Virus record (IMG/VR): IMGVR_UViG_3300012349_000002
Coordinates: 1 to 56,247 of that record
Length of the DNA stretch: 56,247 nt
Reading direction: 5' to 3' (one strand)
DNA from: a virus
Taxonomy: Duplodnaviria; Caudoviricetes
The first letter of the stretch is position 1; each line of letters starts with the position of its first letter. The notes under the pieces are model-generated. The model saw nothing but the letters and a program-made list of their open reading frames with translations. It searched no databases and was not told the DNA's origin. Shown here in pieces: positions 23,066 through 54,437 of the stretch. The translations under genes and the position numbers were made by a program.

Positions 23066-24148
23066 TTATCCATCCGGTTCCTTTAGATGATGAATTGGAT
23101 CGACGCACCAATATTCAACACAGGTGTACTTGTTCTGCTCCAAAAACCATCGCCAGAAATGCGAGTCCACACCCTGATTTATGAAATCGCCTGCTGTTTC
23201 AAATTCAAACGCTTCGATCAATCTCCGGCTCCAAACCGAGCAACCGAGTCCTGAACAACACGGGACGATCTCCCCCCTTGCGGGATACGTGTGCGCGATC
23301 CAATCGCAATCTTTTCCGTAGCGTAACAATGCTTTCAACATGGTCGGTTCGATTATCACGTCGATCTCGACGTTGAACCACCATTTGTAATTATCGGCGA
23401 GAAACTTCTTTCGAACCACTTCCATTGACCGCGCCATGCGCTGTGCGGCATCTAGTCCAACGGAACTACTGATGTCCGTTGTATCGACGTGCGCCATCGG
23501 CATTTTATCTTTCCAGCGATTGTAACAATCTTCGGTCGCCGAATTGTCCACAACGAAAATGTCGAAGTTCGGATAATCAATCTTCCGCACCGCGTCGATC
23601 CATGCCTGATGCGCATATTCCTTCATCTCATAAGTCGGGCAACTTACGAGCACCTTTGGCGCGGCGAGTTGTTCGTTCCACCATTCAATCGACTTCCACG
23701 TCACGAAGTCCTCTCGGAAATCAGTGCCGCTATGGTCGATTTGATGTAGCTGCTTTGATCCTACGCGCCAAATCTCGTCGCGACCTTTCGGGACATCTGC
23801 CTCTGACACGTATTCCCAGAGACCATTTGAGGATACCACATCGAACCGTTCGTCTTTGAACGGGAGATCGGTTACGCTCGCGTTCAGGACGTAGCCCTGA
23901 GCGCAGGTGTTGGCTATTGCGTAGTCGCTGGAGTCAACGCCCCAAGCGTCGCAGCCTTTTTCTCGGAGCCGTTTGACGAGGTATCCGCATCCGGTGCCAA
24001 TGTCCAATACCGATGAGCCTGCCCCGGACTCAGTAATAAGCCGATTAGCCCAGTATTCGCAATAGTCGTGACGGTGCACGCCACCGCAATCGCCCCAGAC
24101 TTCATCGTAGTACTCGCGGGTAAAAACCACATCATTCGTTCCAATCAC
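23066..24148 (-). CDS. SAM methyltransferase fused to a GT2-like glycosyltransferase
   Basis: VLDIGTGCG SAM motif; VLVSCPTY, FVVDNS, VEIDVII GT-A motifs. Confidence 0.8.
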   Translation of the reverse strand: MIGTNDVVFTREYYDEVWGDCGGVHRHDYCEYWANRLITESGAGSSVLDIGTGCGYLVKRLREKGCDAWGVDSSDYAIANTCAQGYVLNASVTDLPFKDERFDVVSSNGLWEYVSEADVPKGRDEIWRVGSKQLHQIDHSGTDFREDFVTWKSIEWWNEQLAAPKVLVSCPTYEMKEYAHQAWIDAVRKIDYPNFDIFVVDNSATEDCYNRWKDKMPMAHVDTTDISSSVGLDAAQRMARSMEVVRKKFLADNYKWWFNVEIDVIIEPTMLKALLRYGKDCDWIAHTYPARGEIVPCCSGLGCSVWSRRLIEAFEFETAGDFINQGVDSHFWRWFLEQNKYTCVEYWCVDPIHHLKEPDG

Positions 24149-29695: not shown

Positions 29696-30642
29696 TGGCC
29701 GGACGACGAACATGGCGCGACGAACTTTCGGCTGATCGCTACGATCAAGGTCAACTGGAAAGCCAAGCCCTTCGACAGCAGCTTTTGGAGCAACAGGTAG
29801 CGAATCTTCCTCTTTCGAGGGAGGAACAGCAGTTAAAGTTCACTCATGCCCAAAGCCAAGAGGCAAAAGCGCGGTACGATCTGAATAAGGAAATCGAGAC
29901 TGACCGGCAAAGAACGGCATTTTACAATGGACTTCAAGAAGTCGAATCCTACCTGAACAATAATGGTGCGCCTATTGGCACACAGAAACACGCGGAAGCG
30001 TTTGCGGCTTATGCTCACGAATTTCCGCTTGCGCGTTCATCTGCGGATGTTCAGCAAATGCTCAAACTCCACGCTAATATCAATGACGATCAGGCAGCAT
30101 TAACGCAGAGAATCGCAGCGCGACAGGCTGCTGCCCAGGCGGCGGCTCCGGGTCAGAAAGCCGAACTATCGTCAATTACCGAATCAGGCGAGCCCACGCT
30201 AAGATTTAAGAGCGCCGAAGTGCCGGAGGAGGCGATACTGCGGTACGGTAAGATGAAAGGTGACGTTGCCCAGAACGAAGCCCTTTTGCTGCACGACATC
30301 AAGCGGCAAGCAGAGGCAAACCAAACTCCAAACATTCCGTATAATCCTGCGTTTGATGAAAAGTCAGCAAAGATCGCTGGCGATTTGGCGGCGTCTAAAG
30401 CCGAACTAGGAATTCTTACTCAGAAACATCCCCAGTTAATTCAGTCGGCAGTACCAATGACTACGGCTCAAACTCAGCCAGCAGCGGACATTGTTGCTCC
30501 TGCGCCGAATGCACCAGAAATCACGCTACCTCCGGTGGAAGCAGCGCCAACTTCGCATCCAATGGAAGGCCAGACCGTTCGTAACAAGCAAAGTGGGAAA
30601 ATTGGTGTAATCACCGATGGTCAGTTCGTTCCGAATGAGTAA
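29695..30642 (+). CDS. Helical internal virion/ejection protein (probable)
   Basis: Gln/Ala-rich coiled coil; second of three consecutive ejection-like genes. Confidence 0.5.
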   Translation: MAGRRTWRDELSADRYDQGQLESQALRQQLLEQQVANLPLSREEQQLKFTHAQSQEAKARYDLNKEIETDRQRTAFYNGLQEVESYLNNNGAPIGTQKHAEAFAAYAHEFPLARSSADVQQMLKLHANINDDQAALTQRIAARQAAAQAAAPGQKAELSSITESGEPTLRFKSAEVPEEAILRYGKMKGDVAQNEALLLHDIKRQAEANQTPNIPYNPAFDEKSAKIAGDLAASKAELGILTQKHPQLIQSAVPMTTAQTQPAADIVAPAPNAPEITLPPVEAAPTSHPMEGQTVRNKQSGKIGVITDGQFVPNE

Positions 30643-30651
30643 TTAAATGAG

Positions 30652-33498
30652 ATGCCTGCTGATCCGAATGATTATGAAATTGTCGCTAACCCAAGTGATT
30701 TTGAGGTCGTAGCAGCACCAAAGCCTGTCGAAAGTCCAGCAGTCGCCTACGGTCAGCGAATGGGCGGTGGTGAAGTGAATCCGAAAGGAACGCAGCAACT
30801 CGGAGAATTACTTCGCGGTGCGGATTTAGCGACAATTCCCAGCGATGTCGCAGCGACACTAACCCCTCTCACCGCCGTCCCACACGCAATTAAGGAAGCA
30901 TACGATGTGCTGCGAGGAGTTCCGGTTGAGCAAGCGGTTCCTGAAAGCCAGAAATTTGTAGGCGTCGAGACAAAGCCGCTGGAAGAACGGATCACGACTG
31001 GTGCGGACACCGCTATCCAACTCTTATTCGCCAAGGGAATCGCGGGCGGTCTGTCCGAGACGCTTGGATTCGCCGAGCGACCACCAATTTTACCAGAAAC
31101 GGCAGCAGTACCAGAAGTTCAACCACAAGGAGGTGAGACAGGTGCCATACAAGAGCAAAAAGCAGCAGAGATACTTCAACGTCCACGCGGCGGAATTGGA
31201 GAGGCAGGGGGTAAACGTGGCGGAGTGGAACCAAGCGTCCAAGGGCCAGAAATTGCCGCTCCGGGCGCGGAAGAAGGGGCGATAGCAGAGAAACCAAAAG
31301 AAGCAGCAGCTCCTGTTGCGGTGGAACCAACGATTCCAAATAGTCCAACGAGCCTTAAAAATGCTGTAGTTGATCAGGAACGTGAAGCAAGAGGATTGCC
31401 GTCTGTAGTTCAACCGGCGCGCCAAGGATTTGGCGAACTGTGGGACAGGGTATCGCAAAAGATAGATCAAGACCCAAATTATCCAGATCAAGTCATTCAG
31501 TCGCTCAAAGATAATAAACGTGCAATGACGGCAGAGGAAGATGCCGCCTTGCTCCACCGTCAGGTTGATCTCCAAAATCAGTACGCAAAAACTAATCAGA
31601 CGGTAATAGACGCGAAGGCTGCGGGTGACGATACAGCGTTGTCGGAAGCCAGTGCGCGATCCAAGGCGTTGTCCGATCAATTACTGGAAATTTACGATAT
31701 TGGCAGGGCTGGTGGGCGCGAGACTGCGCTTGGGTTAAATGCCAGAAAACTTCTTTCAAACGAAGATTTTTCGTTGGGCAACATGATAACCCAAAAGCGC
31801 GCAGACCAAATGGGCGCGGAACTCACGCCGGAAGAAACCGCGCAAGTCACTAAGGCGCACGAAAACATAACCGCTAAACGCATCGCTTTGGACGCCTACG
31901 AAACATCTCCACGCGCTGAATCTTACCGCAAACAACTCCAGAAATGGAAGGATGAATACCAGCAGAGAACGACTGAGGGAGATTTCGCACCGACGGTTCG
32001 GCAACGGCTACTCCTCGATCCAGAGGGAATGAAAATTAAAGCCGACTTTGAAAGGTCTAAGGCCGATTGGCAGCGGTCACGAGTAGCCGATCAAGCGGCC
32101 AGCCGCACTCCAAGCCAGAAGTTTTGGGATAACTTCGTTGGCGTTGAGCGCGCAATGAAGCTGTCTTCTGACGTTGTTCTTGCCAAGTTGACCGCTGCCG
32201 CTGCCGTTCGCGAGGCCGGTCTTACCCCGGCGGAGCAGCTCGTTGGTAGTGTAACTCGTCAAATAATTCCCGGGATCGCCGCAAAAGCCCCAAGGTACGG
32301 TGGAGGATTCTCGCTCGATTCCGAGATAAATGCTAAACGTGAGATGTTCACCACGGGCATGAAAGATGCGTGGCAAAATCTCCAAATGAAGCAGACCGAT
32401 CTGGACGAACTTTACAAGACTGGAAAGATCAAAGCGCCTGACGAATTTTATGATTACATGGGTTATCTACACGGGGCGCTTAAAGCACCGATCAAGAGGG
32501 CTGAGTTTGCGCGGTCATTAACCGAGAGGATGAAATGGGCAACGCAGCAAGGCCAAGACGTGAATAGTCAACCGGTGATGCGGCAGTTGTCCGAGCAGGC
32601 GTACGTGGACGCTAATCGTTCGATATTCTTGCAGGACAACATCGTCAGTAAATCAATGAATTTGCTTAACCGCTACCTGGAAACGCAAAAGATAGCTCCA
32701 AACCTCGGGCCTGCTCTCTCGCGGATAAACAGGTTCTTAGTGCCAATCGTGAAAATCCCAGTAAACATCGTAGGGGAAGTCGCGGAAGGCGTTCACGGTG
32801 TCGCCAGTGGCGGAACGCGCGCTGCGCTTGCTTATATGAAGGGAGTATCGACCCTAGAACCTGCACAAGCCGATCTGGTAATGCGCCAGATCAATAAGGG
32901 GCTGATCGGGAATGGTCTGATTCTTACCGGCTATCTTCTACGTAATCAGGTTGGCGGATTCTATCACGATCAAGATAAACGCAGTCCAGCAGATGTTCAG
33001 CCAGGACGGTACAGAATAGGCTCAGTTGATCTTCCAGCATCGGCTGGGCACTCCACGGGTGCGATGCTTCTCAACATTGGAGCTACCGTTGGAAGGGTCG
33101 CAGAAGAACAAATAAAGAAAACATCATCTCAGACCAAGGGCGCCACAGAAGGATTGCGCGCGGCTGGTGCAAGACTAGCGCATGAAGTTCCCTTTGTTCC
33201 AGCCGTCACCGGAATTGTGGATGCGATGGATTCCAAGGGAGGATTCCAGAAGTATGTAAACGGGATGATAACTAGCACCACAACGCCTGCTCTGCTTTCG
33301 CATATCGCCAAGATAGCTGACACGCCGGGAACGTTCCCCGCGAACGCTTTGCAAGAAGCTACAAGGCGCAAACCAACCACTCCGGTTGAGGCGTTGAAGA
33401 TGGGCATTCCAGGGCTTCGACAGACGGTTCCAGAACCGAAGCCAAGAGGCGGCGGCGAAAGCGCGATAAGATCGTCTCGACAAAGGGAAAGTCGTTAG
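30652..33498 (+). CDS. Large internal virion/DNA-transfer protein (probable)
   Basis: 948 aa, mostly helical; C-terminal FL.P.VKIP.NI pattern typical of large podoviral ejection proteins. Confidence 0.55.
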   Translation: MPADPNDYEIVANPSDFEVVAAPKPVESPAVAYGQRMGGGEVNPKGTQQLGELLRGADLATIPSDVAATLTPLTAVPHAIKEAYDVLRGVPVEQAVPESQKFVGVETKPLEERITTGADTAIQLLFAKGIAGGLSETLGFAERPPILPETAAVPEVQPQGGETGAIQEQKAAEILQRPRGGIGEAGGKRGGVEPSVQGPEIAAPGAEEGAIAEKPKEAAAPVAVEPTIPNSPTSLKNAVVDQEREARGLPSVVQPARQGFGELWDRVSQKIDQDPNYPDQVIQSLKDNKRAMTAEEDAALLHRQVDLQNQYAKTNQTVIDAKAAGDDTALSEASARSKALSDQLLEIYDIGRAGGRETALGLNARKLLSNEDFSLGNMITQKRADQMGAELTPEETAQVTKAHENITAKRIALDAYETSPRAESYRKQLQKWKDEYQQRTTEGDFAPTVRQRLLLDPEGMKIKADFERSKADWQRSRVADQAASRTPSQKFWDNFVGVERAMKLSSDVVLAKLTAAAAVREAGLTPAEQLVGSVTRQIIPGIAAKAPRYGGGFSLDSEINAKREMFTTGMKDAWQNLQMKQTDLDELYKTGKIKAPDEFYDYMGYLHGALKAPIKRAEFARSLTERMKWATQQGQDVNSQPVMRQLSEQAYVDANRSIFLQDNIVSKSMNLLNRYLETQKIAPNLGPALSRINRFLVPIVKIPVNIVGEVAEGVHGVASGGTRAALAYMKGVSTLEPAQADLVMRQINKGLIGNGLILTGYLLRNQVGGFYHDQDKRSPADVQPGRYRIGSVDLPASAGHSTGAMLLNIGATVGRVAEEQIKKTSSQTKGATEGLRAAGARLAHEVPFVPAVTGIVDAMDSKGGFQKYVNGMITSTTTPALLSHIAKIADTPGTFPANALQEATRRKPTTPVEALKMGIPGLRQTVPEPKPRGGGESAIRSSRQRESR
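31142..31285 (+). CDS. Nested out-of-frame 47-aa basic protein (MPYKSKKQQRYFNVHAAELERQGVNVAEWNQASKGQKLPLRARKKGR)
   Basis: AAGGAGGTGA at 31127-31136, 5 nt before GTG; +1 frame inside 30652..33498. Confidence 0.7.
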   Translation: MPYKSKKQQRYFNVHAAELERQGVNVAEWNQASKGQKLPLRARKKGR

Positions 33499-51747: not shown

Positions 51748-53364
51748 ATGCCAATAGACGACATAGTATCCGTAAACGTCACCACGCCGGAAGGCATCCA
51801 GAACGTTATTGTTCAGGGAAACGTCGGAGGCACTGGACCAACTGGACCAACCGGGCCTACCGGGCCAACGGGGCCAGCTGGAGCAGATGGATTAAACACT
51901 CAAGCGGTTTACGTCAACTACCTGTTCTCAACGACGACAACGGATTCCGACCCGGGCAATGGCAATCTTCGTCTGAACAACGCCACGCAATTATCGTCGA
52001 CGGTTATCCGCGCCGATTTGATTGACGTTAACTCGCAGACCGTGACTGCGGTGTTGGATAACCTCGATGCGAGCACTAGTACCGTCAAAGGTTACATTAG
52101 GCTGTATAAAACTGATGATCCTACCAAGTGGATAGAGTTCACCCTATCTTCGCGAGCGTCTCCGAGCGGTTACAGAAATCTTACGGTAACTGAGGTTGCC
52201 GGTAGCGGGAGCAATCCCTTTGCTAATCTCGACCCGGTAACGCTGGTATTTTCGCGCACAGGCGACGCAGGCGTAGGCGCGACAGGCCCAACGGGCGGCA
52301 CCGGTGGAACGGGTGGAACAGGTGGAACGGGCCCGGCTGGCGCGACGGGACCAACCGGAGGAACCGGAGGTACCGGAGGAACTGGAGGCACGGGTGGAAC
52401 CGGAGGAACAGGCGGGGCTGGTCCAACTGGGCCAACCGGGCCAATGGCTGCGTCCGGTGCGGATGTTAGCAATTCTGCGACTCAAAGCATATCCGCGAGC
52501 ACGGATACGGCGCTCACGTTCGACACTGAAACGACTGATACAGACGGTTATCATTCGATTGTTTCTGCAACATCCAAGCTAACCGTCCCAACTGGTCAGG
52601 GTAACGCTTTCTTTACGATCACAGGCTGGTTCACGTTTGCGGCGTCGGTTGGCGGAACCGAGCGCACCGCAAAGATCAGGCTCAACGGAACCACGATAAT
52701 TGCCGAGCAGACTGAGCAAGGATTGGTCAATGCCAATCTGGACATGAACATTGCCAAGGTAATCAAGCTCGCCGACGGCGATTACGTCGAGCTAGTTGCC
52801 TTCCAGGACAGCGTAGGTTCTATCAATGTTCAGACCGGTGCTTCATTTTCGATAGCGCGCGAGGGTGGCCCTATCGGAGCCACGGGACCGACCGGCGGTA
52901 CCGGGGGTACTGGTGGTACCGGACCAGCAGGCGGCGGAACTTTGTCGCAGGTCAGCGGATCGGATTTTACTACGAGCAGTACTACGCTTGTGGATATTAC
53001 GGGATTAACCTTTGCGGCATCTGCTAACACCAAATACGAAGTGGACGTTTTGTTGACTGTTCAAAGCAGCACCTCGGCGGGATTAAAGCCATCTATCGCA
53101 TTTAGCGCGGCTGGCGCTACCGGGCAGTGGCAAGGACTGGCCAACTCTACAAGCGGTGGCGTTGTAGCGGGCTTGGCGCAAGTGATCGGAACGGCCAATA
53201 CCGCTGCTGTTATTACTACTGCGGCAACAACGGGAGGAATTTGGATGAAGACTATTGTAAATGTGGGTGCAAACGCTGGAAACATAACTGCCCAAATACT
53301 TAAGGTCACTAGCGGAACGGCCACTGTTTACATAGGTTCGAGGATGACGGTCACGACATTGTGA
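51748..53364 (+). CDS. Collagen-like tail fibre with C1q-like and beta-sandwich domains
   Basis: GPT/GGT/GAT triplet runs; ALTFD.E..DTDG.H...L..GDYVEL.AFQ C1q-like pattern. Confidence 0.75.
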   Translation: MPIDDIVSVNVTTPEGIQNVIVQGNVGGTGPTGPTGPTGPTGPAGADGLNTQAVYVNYLFSTTTTDSDPGNGNLRLNNATQLSSTVIRADLIDVNSQTVTAVLDNLDASTSTVKGYIRLYKTDDPTKWIEFTLSSRASPSGYRNLTVTEVAGSGSNPFANLDPVTLVFSRTGDAGVGATGPTGGTGGTGGTGGTGPAGATGPTGGTGGTGGTGGTGGTGGTGGAGPTGPTGPMAASGADVSNSATQSISASTDTALTFDTETTDTDGYHSIVSATSKLTVPTGQGNAFFTITGWFTFAASVGGTERTAKIRLNGTTIIAEQTEQGLVNANLDMNIAKVIKLADGDYVELVAFQDSVGSINVQTGASFSIAREGGPIGATGPTGGTGGTGGTGPAGGGTLSQVSGSDFTTSSTTLVDITGLTFAASANTKYEVDVLLTVQSSTSAGLKPSIAFSAAGATGQWQGLANSTSGGVVAGLAQVIGTANTAAVITTAATTGGIWMKTIVNVGANAGNITAQILKVTSGTATVYIGSRMTVTTL

Positions 53365-54437
53365 GACTGCATCTCGTTGCGCTTCCGCATACGCAGGTCT
53401 CTAATGAGTTTTGCGGATGCGCGTATACGTCTAACATTGTAAAATTTTGTAAGATGTTGGGGCAAGAGCATGAAATTTTCGTGTATGCACCTGACGGCCC
53501 ACCGATTAATGGCGCAACACTCGTTCCATGTTTTACATACGAAGAACGCACAAAATTGTTCGGAGAATATGATCCAGACCGAAACCCATCTTGGCCTACA
53601 GACCAACAATTTGTAGGATTTAATGAGCACGTCGTTGAAGCCCTGAAAGAACATCTAAGTGCTCGTGACCTAATTTTGATCTCTGCTGGCTGGTGCCATA
53701 AACTTGTATATGATTCCTTTCCAGCCCATATTAGGTGCGAACAAGGCGTGGGGTACGAAGGTATTATATCTACCTTCTGCGCTTTCCCTTCCTACGCTTG
53801 GATGCACTACGTCTATGTCAAAAAGAAAATAGACGACGGACGTTGGTACGACGTTGTGATTCCACATTTTGTCGATTCGGACGAGTTTCCTAAATTGAAT
53901 AGTGGCAAAGGGAAATACTTATTGTTCCTCGGCCGTATCATCGAACGCAAAGGTCCGCACATCGCTGGGGAAATAGCTCAGAGAACTGGATTGCCGTTGA
54001 AGGTTGCTGGTCCTAGTGGGAGACAAGTGGGCGAAGATATTGCCGGTGCGGGTGTGACGATTAAAAACGCTGAGTATGTTGGTTCAGTCAACATTAGAGA
54101 ACGTGCTGAACTCTTAGCAAACGCCAAAGCCCTAGTCGTCCCAACAACTTACTTCGAACCATTCGGTAACGTCGTAATCGAAGCTATGATGGCAGGTACC
54201 CCGGCGATAACGACCGACTGGGGCGCGTTTCCCGAGACCGTCCACAATGGCGTATCAGGATTCCGCTTTCGCACGTTGAAGGAAGCAGCGGCAATTATCG
54301 AGAAAGCTCTGTGGCCAGCCCCGAGCGTCATCCGCCAATACGCAACCCAACGCTTCTCCCTCGCCGCCGTCACGCCCAAATTCAATCACTGGTTTAATCA
54401 GCTCGATTCCCTCTGGGGCAAGGGCTGGTACGCTTAA
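53361..54437 (+). CDS. GT4 glycosyltransferase
   Basis: LFLGRIIERKG and EPFGNVVIEAMMAGTPAI (EX7E). Confidence 0.9.
   Translation: MRLHLVALPHTQVSNEFCGCAYTSNIVKFCKMLGQEHEIFVYAPDGPPINGATLVPCFTYEERTKLFGEYDPDRNPSWPTDQQFVGFNEHVVEALKEHLSARDLILISAGWCHKLVYDSFPAHIRCEQGVGYEGIISTFCAFPSYAWMHYVYVKKKIDDGRWYDVVIPHFVDSDEFPKLNSGKGKYLLFLGRIIERKGPHIAGEIAQRTGLPLKVAGPSGRQVGEDIAGAGVTIKNAEYVGSVNIRERAELLANAKALVVPTTYFEPFGNVVIEAMMAGTPAITTDWGAFPETVHNGVSGFRFRTLKEAAAIIEKALWPAPSVIRQYATQRFSLAAVTPKFNHWFNQLDSLWGKGWYA

Follow-up and report, generated by a model that had tools for sequence, protein, structure and literature searches.

The window, that is, the whole stretch of DNA that was analysed, comprises 56,247 nucleotides of a virus of the Caudoviricetes (IMG/VR record IMGVR_UViG_3300012349_000002). 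On its plus strand, a large gene (30652..33498) starts 9 nt after the preceding ORF and encodes a protein of 948 aa (P0002). Wholly within this gene, on the same strand and in another frame, lies a short ORF (31142..31285, plus strand), which reads from a GTG (31142–31144) through 47 codons to a TAG (31283–31285). As (31142 − 30652) mod 3 = 1, the nested ORF occupies the +1 frame of its host gene, and the two form a same-strand overprinted pair. With M read at the GTG, the translation is VPYKSKKQQRYFNVHAAELERQGVNVAEWNQASKGQKLPLRARKKGR, followed by the stop. A Shine-Dalgarno (SD) sequence, AAGGAGGTGA (31127..31136, plus strand), is also located inside the host ORF and is separated from the GTG by the 5 nt spacer GACAG, so that the nested ORF has a translation initiation signal of its own. 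An initial annotation had described this SD, the GTG in the +1 frame and the encoded peptide, and reading the sequence anew recovered all three.

The same annotation had called this SD the strongest noticed in the genome, and its duplex energy with a generic anti-SD sequence, −12.7 kcal/mol, corroborates this description: at 54 long-ORF starts, taken as the starts of the longest ORFs, the best value was −7.3 kcal/mol and the median −0.65 kcal/mol. The combination of AAGGAG with the start of an ORF of at least 40 aa within 4–10 nt is unique to the nested ORF in the genome. Taken by itself, the SD 10-mer is not above chance (two occurrences with at most one mismatch, versus 2.45 expected), and short ORFs in alternative frames are common (73 ORFs of at least 30 aa in 7 kb). 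It is homology, and not the SD or the ORF length alone, that lifts the nested ORF above chance. Most long ORFs of the genome have little or no SD at their longest-ORF starts, and the strong SD could therefore have a purpose other than initiation. The sequence is listed for no RNA run and occurs only in soil metagenome DNA runs, which may be its source. Two antisense ORFs (31090–31680 and 31013–31348) are without a Pfam match, and antisense ORFs are inconsistent at the other copies of the gene; they are treated as by-products.

The N-terminal segment of the host protein (approximately residues 1–145; 30652..31086, plus strand) is conserved in close relatives, and an alignment (A4) pairs MPADPNDYE... 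and ...GLSETL of the host with the N-termini of P0179–P0184. The linker (residues 131–231; 31042..31344, plus strand) is hypervariable and without predicted structure; in A4 it is unalignable, with large insertions in the relatives. It contains the whole overlap, which corresponds to host residues 164–211, and the host-frame stretch AIQEQKAAEILQRPRGGIGEAGGKRGGVEPSVQGPE represents residues 165–200. The linker had been described as low-complexity, in agreement with the AlphaFold2 model of P0002, which predicts disorder here, with pLDDT <50 for residues 1–218 and no secondary structure at residues 131–231. The all-alpha C-terminal region (residues 225–944; 31324..33483, plus strand) is conserved and confidently modelled. 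The search for host homologues yielded 112 proteins of 543–1658 aa, most of which cover 52–77% of the query, and the invariant columns all lie within residues 296–928. Relatives without the nested gene have, in one polypeptide, counterparts of both the N-terminal segment and the C-terminal region, indicating that the host is a single gene.

No Pfam family at E ≤ 1 and no PHROG matched P0002, and a PDB fold search with it gave no match (TM about 0.1). Some of its homologues individually carry PF18760, PF18762, PF04545, PF01464 or PF18013, and the variable half of some of them contains sigma-70 region 4, SLT or lysozyme Pfam domains. In P0002 itself, the two or more domains of disparate activity that define a polyvalent protein were not found; judged by the Pfam scans, it has the conserved C-terminal region of polyvalent proteins without a recognisable effector domain. 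The host is related to polyvalent proteins, a group probably delivered with the virion, and the putative label 'ejection protein' that it had received finds support solely in the polyvalent-effector and muralytic Pfam domains of its homologues. Three ORFs upstream and one ORF downstream of the host had no Pfam or PHROG match, and a tail-fibre gene is located 18 kb away. When 10 ORFs that precede nested hosts were compared with PHROG, two matches emerged, one of unknown function and one, weak, to a virion structural protein (E 2.6e-6).

The product of the nested ORF combines a three-helix mini-domain (residues 1–39) with the basic tail LRARKKGR; in its AlphaFold2 model (pLDDT 88), the helices span residues 6–14, 16–21 and 26–33. 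The peptide has no cysteine and no hydrophobic N-terminus. A PDB fold search with the model gave no usable match, and among the predicted viral structures of BFVD only weak matches to uncharacterised small viral proteins were found (best E 0.065). Pfam and PHROG scans of the peptide and of its 94-aa upstream-extended form returned nothing, and no Pfam family matched the peptide (P0001) or 24 members of its family alignment (A1) at E ≤ 1. The Pfam models searched included the LPD families of the work on polyvalent proteins, and none of them matches the small module. PHROG matches of 24 family members were scattered, all with E > 0.02. A Q-x-x-Y-F near the N-terminus resembles a sliding-clamp-binding motif, a speculative likeness that was dropped. 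DUF3008 (PF11450), which comprises small viral and bacterial proteins of about 50 residues, was considered as an assignment since, in a language-model search, the nearest named cluster had 37% DUF3008 members (score 0.90, 190 of 256 features). It was rejected: neither the peptide nor the 24 members of A1 matched the Pfam HMM (24-bit cut-off, E ≤ 1), and searching a six-frame translation of the genome with PF11450 gave nothing at E ≤ 10 either.

A homologue search, as suggested in the initial annotation, retrieved 22 small proteins (45–75 aa, 63–79% identical) from a database of 5.8 billion proteins, with E values from 2e-13 to 2.5e-10. A profile search extended the family to 1352 representatives of 50%-identity clusters at E ≤ 1e-3, 433 of them at E ≤ 1e-10. 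The family consensus, MPYKSxAQxxYFNxxxxxLExQGVxVxEWNxASKGxKLP, in which PYKS at the start is invariant, agrees with the MP(Y/F)KS... motif given in the initial annotation. By tblastn, at least 364 places were confirmed in viral contigs, and the analysis proceeded with the best 80 of them; MAG contigs yielded another 47. The window genome has a single copy. Against 50,697 phage records, tblastn of the peptide and megablast of the host gave no match or only matches with E of about 5, so at this sensitivity, and with records close to the window possibly excluded from the set, no member of the family was detected in deposited phage genomes. A collection of 15 billion proteins contains the host protein, with entries from four public sources, but not the exact peptide.

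Altogether, 117 non-redundant DNA copies were classified: 89 are stand-alone genes, 21 are nested in large ORFs, five are N-terminal in-frame fusions with long proteins, and two are ambiguous. The family had been proposed to be widespread, small, basic and normally encoded by stand-alone genes, which the 89 free-standing copies bear out. The accompanying proposal, a gene absorbed into a virion gene and missed by annotation, held in part: the gene had indeed been missed, but a one-off absorption is contradicted by 21 non-redundant nestings, all of them with the same +1 offset. The phages with the nested cassette range in G+C from 0.30 to 0.69, and its position in the host protein varies from residue 42 to residue 1667. 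In addition, the module is present at E ≤ 1e-6 in 237 proteins of 124–2000 aa and is N-terminal in most of those examined. Among 120 module-bearing long proteins listed, 18 contain DUF6321 and three NUDIX. At 13 loci, the small gene is found 2–13 nt downstream of a large ORF that belongs to the single-linkage BLAST cluster of the nested hosts, and at two of these loci (L004 and L015) the large ORF matches P0002 itself. Elsewhere, its neighbours match small-terminase, portal and virion-structural PHROGs. The contexts are heterogeneous; in one locus, the small gene precedes a DNA polymerase gene.

Evidence for dual coding was obtained by comparing nested and free-standing copies. The per-site pairwise divergence at the first, second and third codon positions was 0.24, 0.18 and 0.36 among nested copies (n = 14) and 0.23, 0.16 and 0.57 among stand-alone copies (n = 47). 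By this measure, nested copies are as conserved at positions 1 and 2 as stand-alone copies, and the constraint in the host frame that was to be checked is visible as the drop in third-position diversity to 0.36. Over the 39-codon core, the frame equivalent to the host frame is free of stops in 21 of 21 nested copies, versus three of 89 stand-alone copies, in which it contains 3.88 stops on average. At AT-rich loci, the G+C content of the nested core exceeds that of its own locus by 0.154 (n = 13), compared with 0.008 for stand-alone copies (n = 54; Mann-Whitney p = 1.5e-8). The open host frame, the G+C shift and the reduced third-position diversity (0.57 to 0.36) together indicate that both frames are constrained, and the third positions of the nested copies are recoded in a manner that keeps the host frame open. 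Nested copies are more alike in the small frame (mean amino-acid identity 0.72) than in the host frame (0.50). With 89 of the 117 copies free and the third position the most variable, the small frame is conserved as a protein independently of the host.

The arrangement can be compared with known cases of nested genes. In lambda Rz/Rz1 and other embedded spanin pairs, a larger phage gene encloses a small gene that is read in the +1 frame from its own start and the product of which cooperates with that of the host gene; the lipoprotein Rz1 has a signal peptide and a lipobox cysteine. The likeness lies in the +1 nesting with an own start and in the fact that nested genes of this kind escape automatic annotation. 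Unlike Rz1, the nested peptide lacks a cysteine and a hydrophobic leader, and thus a lipobox and a signal peptide; the host is a 948-aa protein related to polyvalent proteins and not an inner-membrane spanin; and the nested gene is the older, widely conserved partner and the host frame the derived one. In phiX174, genes B in A, E in D, and K are overprinted, and in classic overprinting the nested gene is young and lineage-restricted. The likeness to phiX174 is that two frames share one stretch of DNA, one of them ancestral and the other compositionally biased and disordered. Here, by contrast, the nested gene belongs to a family with more than 1000 cluster representatives, the host linker is the novel frame, and the same cassette recurs at varied positions in mosaic host proteins. 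Overprinting in general is treated in reviews (PMC8227390 and PMC6195259). A preprint (bioRxiv 10.64898/2026.10.22.760973) reports that the E. coli microprotein GndA, encoded out of frame inside gnd, acts on the gnd product; GndA shares with the present case a small protein encoded out of frame within a larger gene and differs in belonging to a cellular metabolic gene and in having an unrelated sequence.

Taken together, these comparisons make it likely that 31142–31285 is a genuine protein-coding gene that overlaps the linker of the large phage gene in the +1 frame. For this reading to be an artefact, either a chance ORF or an assembly frameshift that splits an in-frame host domain would have to be invoked. 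ORFs of this length are common in alternative frames and the SD 10-mer alone is within chance expectation, but homology down to E 1e-13 and the same +1 offset at 21 independent non-redundant loci speak against chance; moreover, contigs of two runs, both possibly the source of the sequence, cover 30600–31700 without differences or gaps. No stop interrupts the host frame across the overlap, and the host protein can be aligned with its relatives both before and after it. An artefact is accordingly very improbable. The nested ORF might also be an untranslated relic, that is, a free small gene that was engulfed by the fusion of neighbouring genes and has not yet decayed. The host family provides the arguments in favour of this explanation: the host-frame signature of the nesting is missing in 110 of 112 host homologues, including the closest (P0177, 88% identical), so that nesting is dispensable for the family, and the linker of P0181 resembles a degenerate signature (by eye, in the protein only). 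A search of metagenome contigs with A4 found six distant loci, in none of which an HMM scan detects the small gene. A decaying relic is nevertheless improbable given the equal constraint on codon positions 1 and 2 in nested and free-standing copies, and the nesting persists between the window and a second locus (L026), where the host protein, 34% identical to P0002, matches it before and after the overlap and the nested peptides are visibly similar over the core. The host-frame signature is also present in P0179 (76% identical to P0002). Furthermore, none of the 21 nested copies is disrupted, and each has kept its start codon and an initiation signal.

The conserved peptide could also be produced by programmed ribosomal frameshifting and not as a free protein of 47 residues. 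If ribosomes slipped by +1 out of the host frame before reaching 31142, the host N-terminus would be joined to the module; if they slipped by −1 where the small ORF ends, the module would be joined to the host C-terminal region, as in the in-frame fusions of other loci. The SD-like sequence would then be a frameshift stimulator, and such sequences stimulate frameshifting in prfB and dnaX. In line with this, in-frame N-terminal fusions are common, with one C-terminal case (P0091), the small frame in the window is open for 60 codons upstream of the GTG, and an X XXY YYZ heptamer is present somewhere in the small frame in eight of the 21 nested copies. However, the other 13, namely 31142–31285 and 12 further copies, have no slippery heptamer, and entry from upstream is excluded at 12 AT-rich nested loci, where the small frame has a stop 0–11 codons before the ATG. 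A start codon is retained in 21 of 21 copies (ATG in 20, GTG only in the window), with initiation signals that fit the likely host type: at all eight other nested loci with G+C of at least 0.42, SD-like sites of −5.7 to −11.9 kcal/mol precede the nested start, and A-rich leaders are found at the AT-rich loci. In addition, stand-alone copies begin precisely at the Met that matches the nested start. Frameshifting is thus an unlikely source of the peptide.

Under the preferred interpretation as a translated overlapping gene, ribosomes would initiate internally and independently at the SD and GTG, on an mRNA presumably shared with the host gene, and the product would be a 47-residue protein with a conserved three-helix mini-domain of about 39 residues and a short basic tail. 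Comparison shows the small gene as the older, conserved reading and the host frame over the overlap as a derived, disordered linker of low complexity. The codons of the linker are dictated by the small gene, the third positions of which have been recoded to remove stops. In free copies, the other alternative frame is open by chance in 17 of 89, roughly six times as often as the +1 frame (three of 89). That only the +1 frame is used in the 21 nested copies, although the other frame opens more often, argues for one origin or a functional requirement, and against repeated accidental read-through. Mapping the nested state onto a tree of the 39-residue core takes 10 changes, compared with a mean of 12.5 for shuffled states (12 of 500 shuffles were as low). 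The well-supported branches force only one change, the core being too short to resolve more, and single and multiple origins of nesting both appear compatible with this tree.

The possible role of the small protein is suggested by its context. Iyer, Burroughs, Anand, de Souza and Aravind (2017, PMC5512222) describe polyvalent proteins as being packaged into virions and injected alongside the DNA; the main text of that article contains no occurrence of 'overlapping' or of 'small basic'. Homologues of P0002 resemble them in carrying PF18760 and PF18762, and one source names a PF18762 protein 'Serine/Threonine/Tyrosine Kinase found in polyvalent proteins'. The long in-frame carriers of the module likewise combine NUDIX, DUF6321 and other domains. 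The difference is again the absence of a recognisable effector domain in P0002. We tentatively propose, while considering it somewhat less probable than not, that the module serves as an adaptor in the delivery or packaging of large, virion-carried polyvalent proteins. Many phages have it joined in cis to the N-terminal end of long mosaic proteins; in others, it is encoded by a separate small gene directly after, or nested inside, such a large gene, or beside genes for the small terminase, the portal or virion proteins. The basic tail is suggestive of an affinity for packaged DNA or the capsid interior. The roles put forward in the initial annotation, a DNA-condensing core protein or a chaperone of the host protein, would be conjectural alternatives.

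A more far-reaching and rather speculative version holds that the small gene and the acidic disordered linker form one mobile dual-coding cassette of single origin, which recombination spread to the linkers of many different cargo genes, polyvalent or virion, in phages infecting Bacteroidota, Acidobacteriota and other hosts. The exclusive use of the +1 offset would be in keeping with such a cassette. In that case, the small protein would be a 'loading handle' in trans, fused in cis to the cargo in other phages, often with DUF6321 at the far end, and would attach the cargo to DNA or to the inside of the capsid so that it can be packaged and ejected. The overlapped linker might be the docking site of the small protein, and nesting would fix the stoichiometry of both products. 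A complex prediction for the small protein with host residues 225–948 gave no answer (score 0.00, without controls) and is neutral as to binding.

The locus exemplifies a conserved phage gene that is lost by standard gene calling: the host protein is found in four public sources, the nested peptide in none. It defines a protein family without a Pfam or PHROG model that has more than 1000 representatives of 50%-identity clusters. The usual direction of overprinting is reversed, the short nested gene being old and the linker of the long gene being the new frame. Since the codon-level signature can be measured over 21 independent loci, these loci are a good natural data set for the evolution of dual coding and for the constraint that a disordered linker absorbs. 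The free, fused and nested arrangements tie the family to large mosaic proteins that are thought to be injected with phage DNA, and the family may thus provide a way into studying their loading or delivery.

The window is a complete phage genome of 56,247 bp with direct terminal repeats (100% completeness by CheckV) that originates from soil metagenomes and is very divergent. Among the approximately 30 long ORFs scanned, the only genes recognized were those for a methyltransferase (23066–24148, minus strand), a tail-fibre-like protein (51748–53364), and a glycosyltransferase (53361–54437), plus a few ORFs matching PHROGs whose function is unknown; none of the ORFs was recognized as encoding a terminase, portal or capsid protein. 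On the plus strand, a small ORF of 47 codons runs from a GTG at 31142 to a TAG at 31283–31285, in the +1 frame relative to the host ORF of 948 codons that surrounds it (30652–33498). It is preceded by the Shine-Dalgarno (SD) sequence AAGGAGGTGA (31127–31136) and the spacer GACAG. The peptide and the host-frame stretch reported in the initial annotation match the sequence exactly, and its description of this motif as the strongest SD also held for duplex energy with a generic anti-SD: the value is −12.7 kcal/mol, compared to a best value of −7.3 kcal/mol and a median of −0.65 kcal/mol for 54 long-ORF starts, which were set by the longest-ORF rule and might be wrong in some cases. Three ORFs of 59–69 aa at the left end (starting at 271, 627 and 824, plus strand) all have GGAGG 5–7 nt before the ATG; since most long-ORF starts, set as above, have hardly any SD, SD usage looks uneven across the genome. 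Taken alone, the SD string and an alternative-frame ORF of 47 codons are each within chance expectation, and the case therefore depends on the comparison with other sequences.

A search with the nested peptide against 5.8 billion clustered proteins identified 23 small proteins, 22 of which have lengths of 45–75 aa and identities to the peptide of 63–79% (E-values of 2e-13 to 2.5e-10). The family consensus is MPYKSxAQxxYFNxxxxxLExQGVxVxEWNxASKGxKLP, followed by a variable tail rich in lysine and arginine. At E ≤ 1e-3, a profile search yielded 1,352 cluster representatives (clustering at 50% identity), 433 of them at E ≤ 1e-10. In viral contigs, tblastn confirmed 364 of the 597 places that matched the pattern, and the 80 best were retained for analysis. 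Species-representative genomes contributed 47 places, all on MAG contigs and mostly binned to Bacteroidota and Acidobacteriota. The peptide had no tblastn match in deposited phage genomes, and none of the Pfam and PHROG models matches the family. DUF3008 was the nearest named cluster in a language-model search, but its HMM matches neither the peptide, nor family members, nor the genome. The AlphaFold2 model computed from an alignment of 50 sequences is a mini-domain of three helices (residues 6–14, 16–21 and 26–33) with high confidence (pLDDT 88); no relative was found for it among solved structures.

Six-frame translations of 133 loci were scanned with the family HMM; the module was found in 126 of them, which together with the window gave 117 non-redundant copies. 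Altogether, 89 copies are stand-alone small genes, 21 are nested wholly within an ORF on the same strand (393 to over 3,376 codons), 5 form the in-frame N-terminus of a longer protein, and 2 are ambiguous. This scoring of stand-alone versus nested copies, suggested in the initial annotation, together with the number of cluster representatives, bears out its view of a widespread family that is normally encoded by stand-alone genes. The ambiguous copies lie in two near-identical GC-rich loci (L046:3853–4035 and L079:2320–2502), in which the small gene shares about 100 nt with the beginning of a 782-codon ORF downstream, at the same +1 offset; this configuration could be an intermediate between free and nested genes. 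Fusions are common among the cluster representatives: the module is N-terminal with a long C-terminal extension in 60 of the best 150, a set in which the string test gave no class for 38. Furthermore, 237 longer proteins of 124–2,000 aa match the module at E ≤ 1e-6. Among the 120 of these proteins that were listed, NUDIX was present in 3 and other domains in single cases; the module is C-terminal in one protein (P0091). The combination of an N-terminal module with a C-terminal DUF6321 is frequent (18 of the 120; P0061, P0081 and 16 others), and mosaic cargo proteins of a single type may have these two as their end modules.

The nested copies differ from the stand-alone copies in several respects. 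The offset between the small and host starts, modulo 3, is 1 in all 21 nested copies, as in the window. In the host-equivalent frame of the 39-codon core, stops are absent from 21 of 21 nested but from only 3 of 89 stand-alone copies, with the stand-alone copies averaging 3.88 stops. Although 17 of the 89 stand-alone copies have no stop in the remaining alternative frame, no nested copy uses it. At AT-rich loci, the G+C content of nested cores exceeds that of the locus by 0.154 (n = 13), compared to 0.008 for stand-alone cores (n = 54; Mann-Whitney p = 1.5e-8), a compositional price of the recoding. The nested small protein remains constrained: at codon positions 1 and 2, nested copies differ pairwise by 0.24 and 0.18 and stand-alone copies by 0.23 and 0.16. 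A drop, from 0.57 in stand-alone to 0.36 in nested copies, is seen solely at position 3 of the small gene, which coincides with position 1 of the host codon. These sequence comparisons show that selection acts on both frames, and that the nested copies are dual-coding, not relics. With an amino-acid identity among nested copies of 0.72 versus 0.50 for the host frame, the small frame is the better conserved of the two. The comparisons also show a conserved small gene that is recurrently nested in one frame.

SD-like sequences (−5.7 to −12.7 kcal/mol) lie at a proper distance within the host ORF in the window and in the 8 other nested loci with a G+C content of at least 0.42. AT-rich nested loci have A-rich leaders without an SD, as is usual for Bacteroidota, and a small-frame stop 0–11 codons upstream of the ATG. 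These initiation signals suit the likely host type. The small peptide might instead arise via frameshifting, and in the window the small frame is indeed open for 60 codons upstream of the start; however, 13 of the 21 nested copies, including that of the window, lack an X XXY YYZ heptamer in this frame. Therefore, a frameshift route cannot be general, and we regard it as improbable for the window. We infer that the small gene is translated by internal initiation, and it would be co-expressed with the host gene. The nested ORF is probably a genuine, independently translated gene.

The host ORF, which begins 9 nt downstream of the preceding ORF, encodes P0002, a protein with 112 homologues of 543–1,658 aa. 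The alignment of P0002 with its eight closest homologues comprises a common N-terminal segment (about residues 1–145), a hypervariable middle part that contains large insertions, and, from near residue 225, a C-terminal region of strong conservation; therefore, P0002 is one gene rather than two read together. In the AlphaFold2 model, residues 1–218 have a pLDDT below 50, residues 131–231 lack secondary structure, and residues 225–944 form a confident all-alpha body without a fold match in the PDB (TM about 0.1). The overlap corresponds to host residues 164–211, so that the nested gene sits wholly within one host gene, in a linker predicted to be disordered. The C-terminal region (31324–33483, residues 225–944) has no Pfam model despite more than 100 homologues, and is an uncharacterised conserved module common to proteins with polyvalent-type effector domains.

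In the variable part of individual homologues, Pfam detected PF18760, PF18762 ('Serine/Threonine/Tyrosine Kinase found in polyvalent proteins'), PF04545/PF08281, PF13412/PF08279, PF01464 and PF18013, which we take to be ART-PolyVal, Kinase-PolyVal, sigma-70 region 4, HTH, SLT and phage lysozyme, respectively. These domains place the host family among, or adjoining, the polyvalent proteins, for which packaging in the virion and injection with the DNA have been argued (Iyer et al., 2017; PMC5512222). Because the Pfam scan found no recognisable effector domain in P0002 and Pfam and PHROG gave no annotation for the adjoining genes, the label 'ejection protein' is plausible but provisional. The host-frame signature of the cassette is present in 1 of the 112 homologues (P0179), and this nesting recurs in locus L026, where the host is homologous at 34% identity. 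In P0181, a 64% identical homologue, the linker (alignment columns about 300–400) resembles a degenerate, interrupted signature (NATQE ... AETGGRGVVEQ) and may represent a decayed nested gene.

In 13 loci, a free small gene follows 2–13 nt after an ORF of 984 to over 1,664 codons; these upstream ORFs and the nested hosts fall into one single-linkage BLAST cluster, and 2 of the 13 match residues 473–926 of P0002 directly. A conserved 172-codon ORF (L004:5208–5726 and 18 other loci), without a Pfam or PHROG match, lies downstream, 22–47 nt past the small gene in 18 loci and past the nested host ORF in L073. Elsewhere, the small gene abuts genes matching small terminase subunit PHROGs (two clusters, 7 and 4 loci), PHROG-matched portal and virion structural protein genes or, in one locus, a DNA polymerase gene. 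In AT-rich phage contigs, a ferritin-like protein of 164 aa (L005:4504–4998; PF00210, E = 1.7e-18) adjoins the small gene or nested host; its homologues are upstream of the small gene in L001, L008, L011, L014 and L073 and downstream in L050, and P0102, a long protein that combines the small module with DUF6321, is likewise annotated with a ferritin domain. The small gene is thus linked to large proteins and to the morphogenesis module. It may have a role tied to large virion-delivered proteins. Tentatively, the small protein might be an adaptor or bind DNA, mainly because the same module is fused in cis to many mosaic proteins.

The exact nested peptide is absent from about 15 billion predicted proteins, a collection that includes the host protein from four sources; the gene was therefore indeed missed by annotation, as initially proposed. 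The terms 'overlapping' and 'small basic' do not occur in the main text of PMC5512222. No paper on DUF6321 or DUF3008 was found by full-text search, and a search on overlapping or nested out-of-frame phage genes and small proteins of metagenomes gave nothing on the present family. Phage genes nested in the +1 frame are a known kind, for example Rz/Rz1 and the overlapping genes of phiX174. Three aspects of the present case are new: the protein family; the relative age of the frames, which is reversed; and the reappearance of a single cassette in phages that differ greatly from one another.
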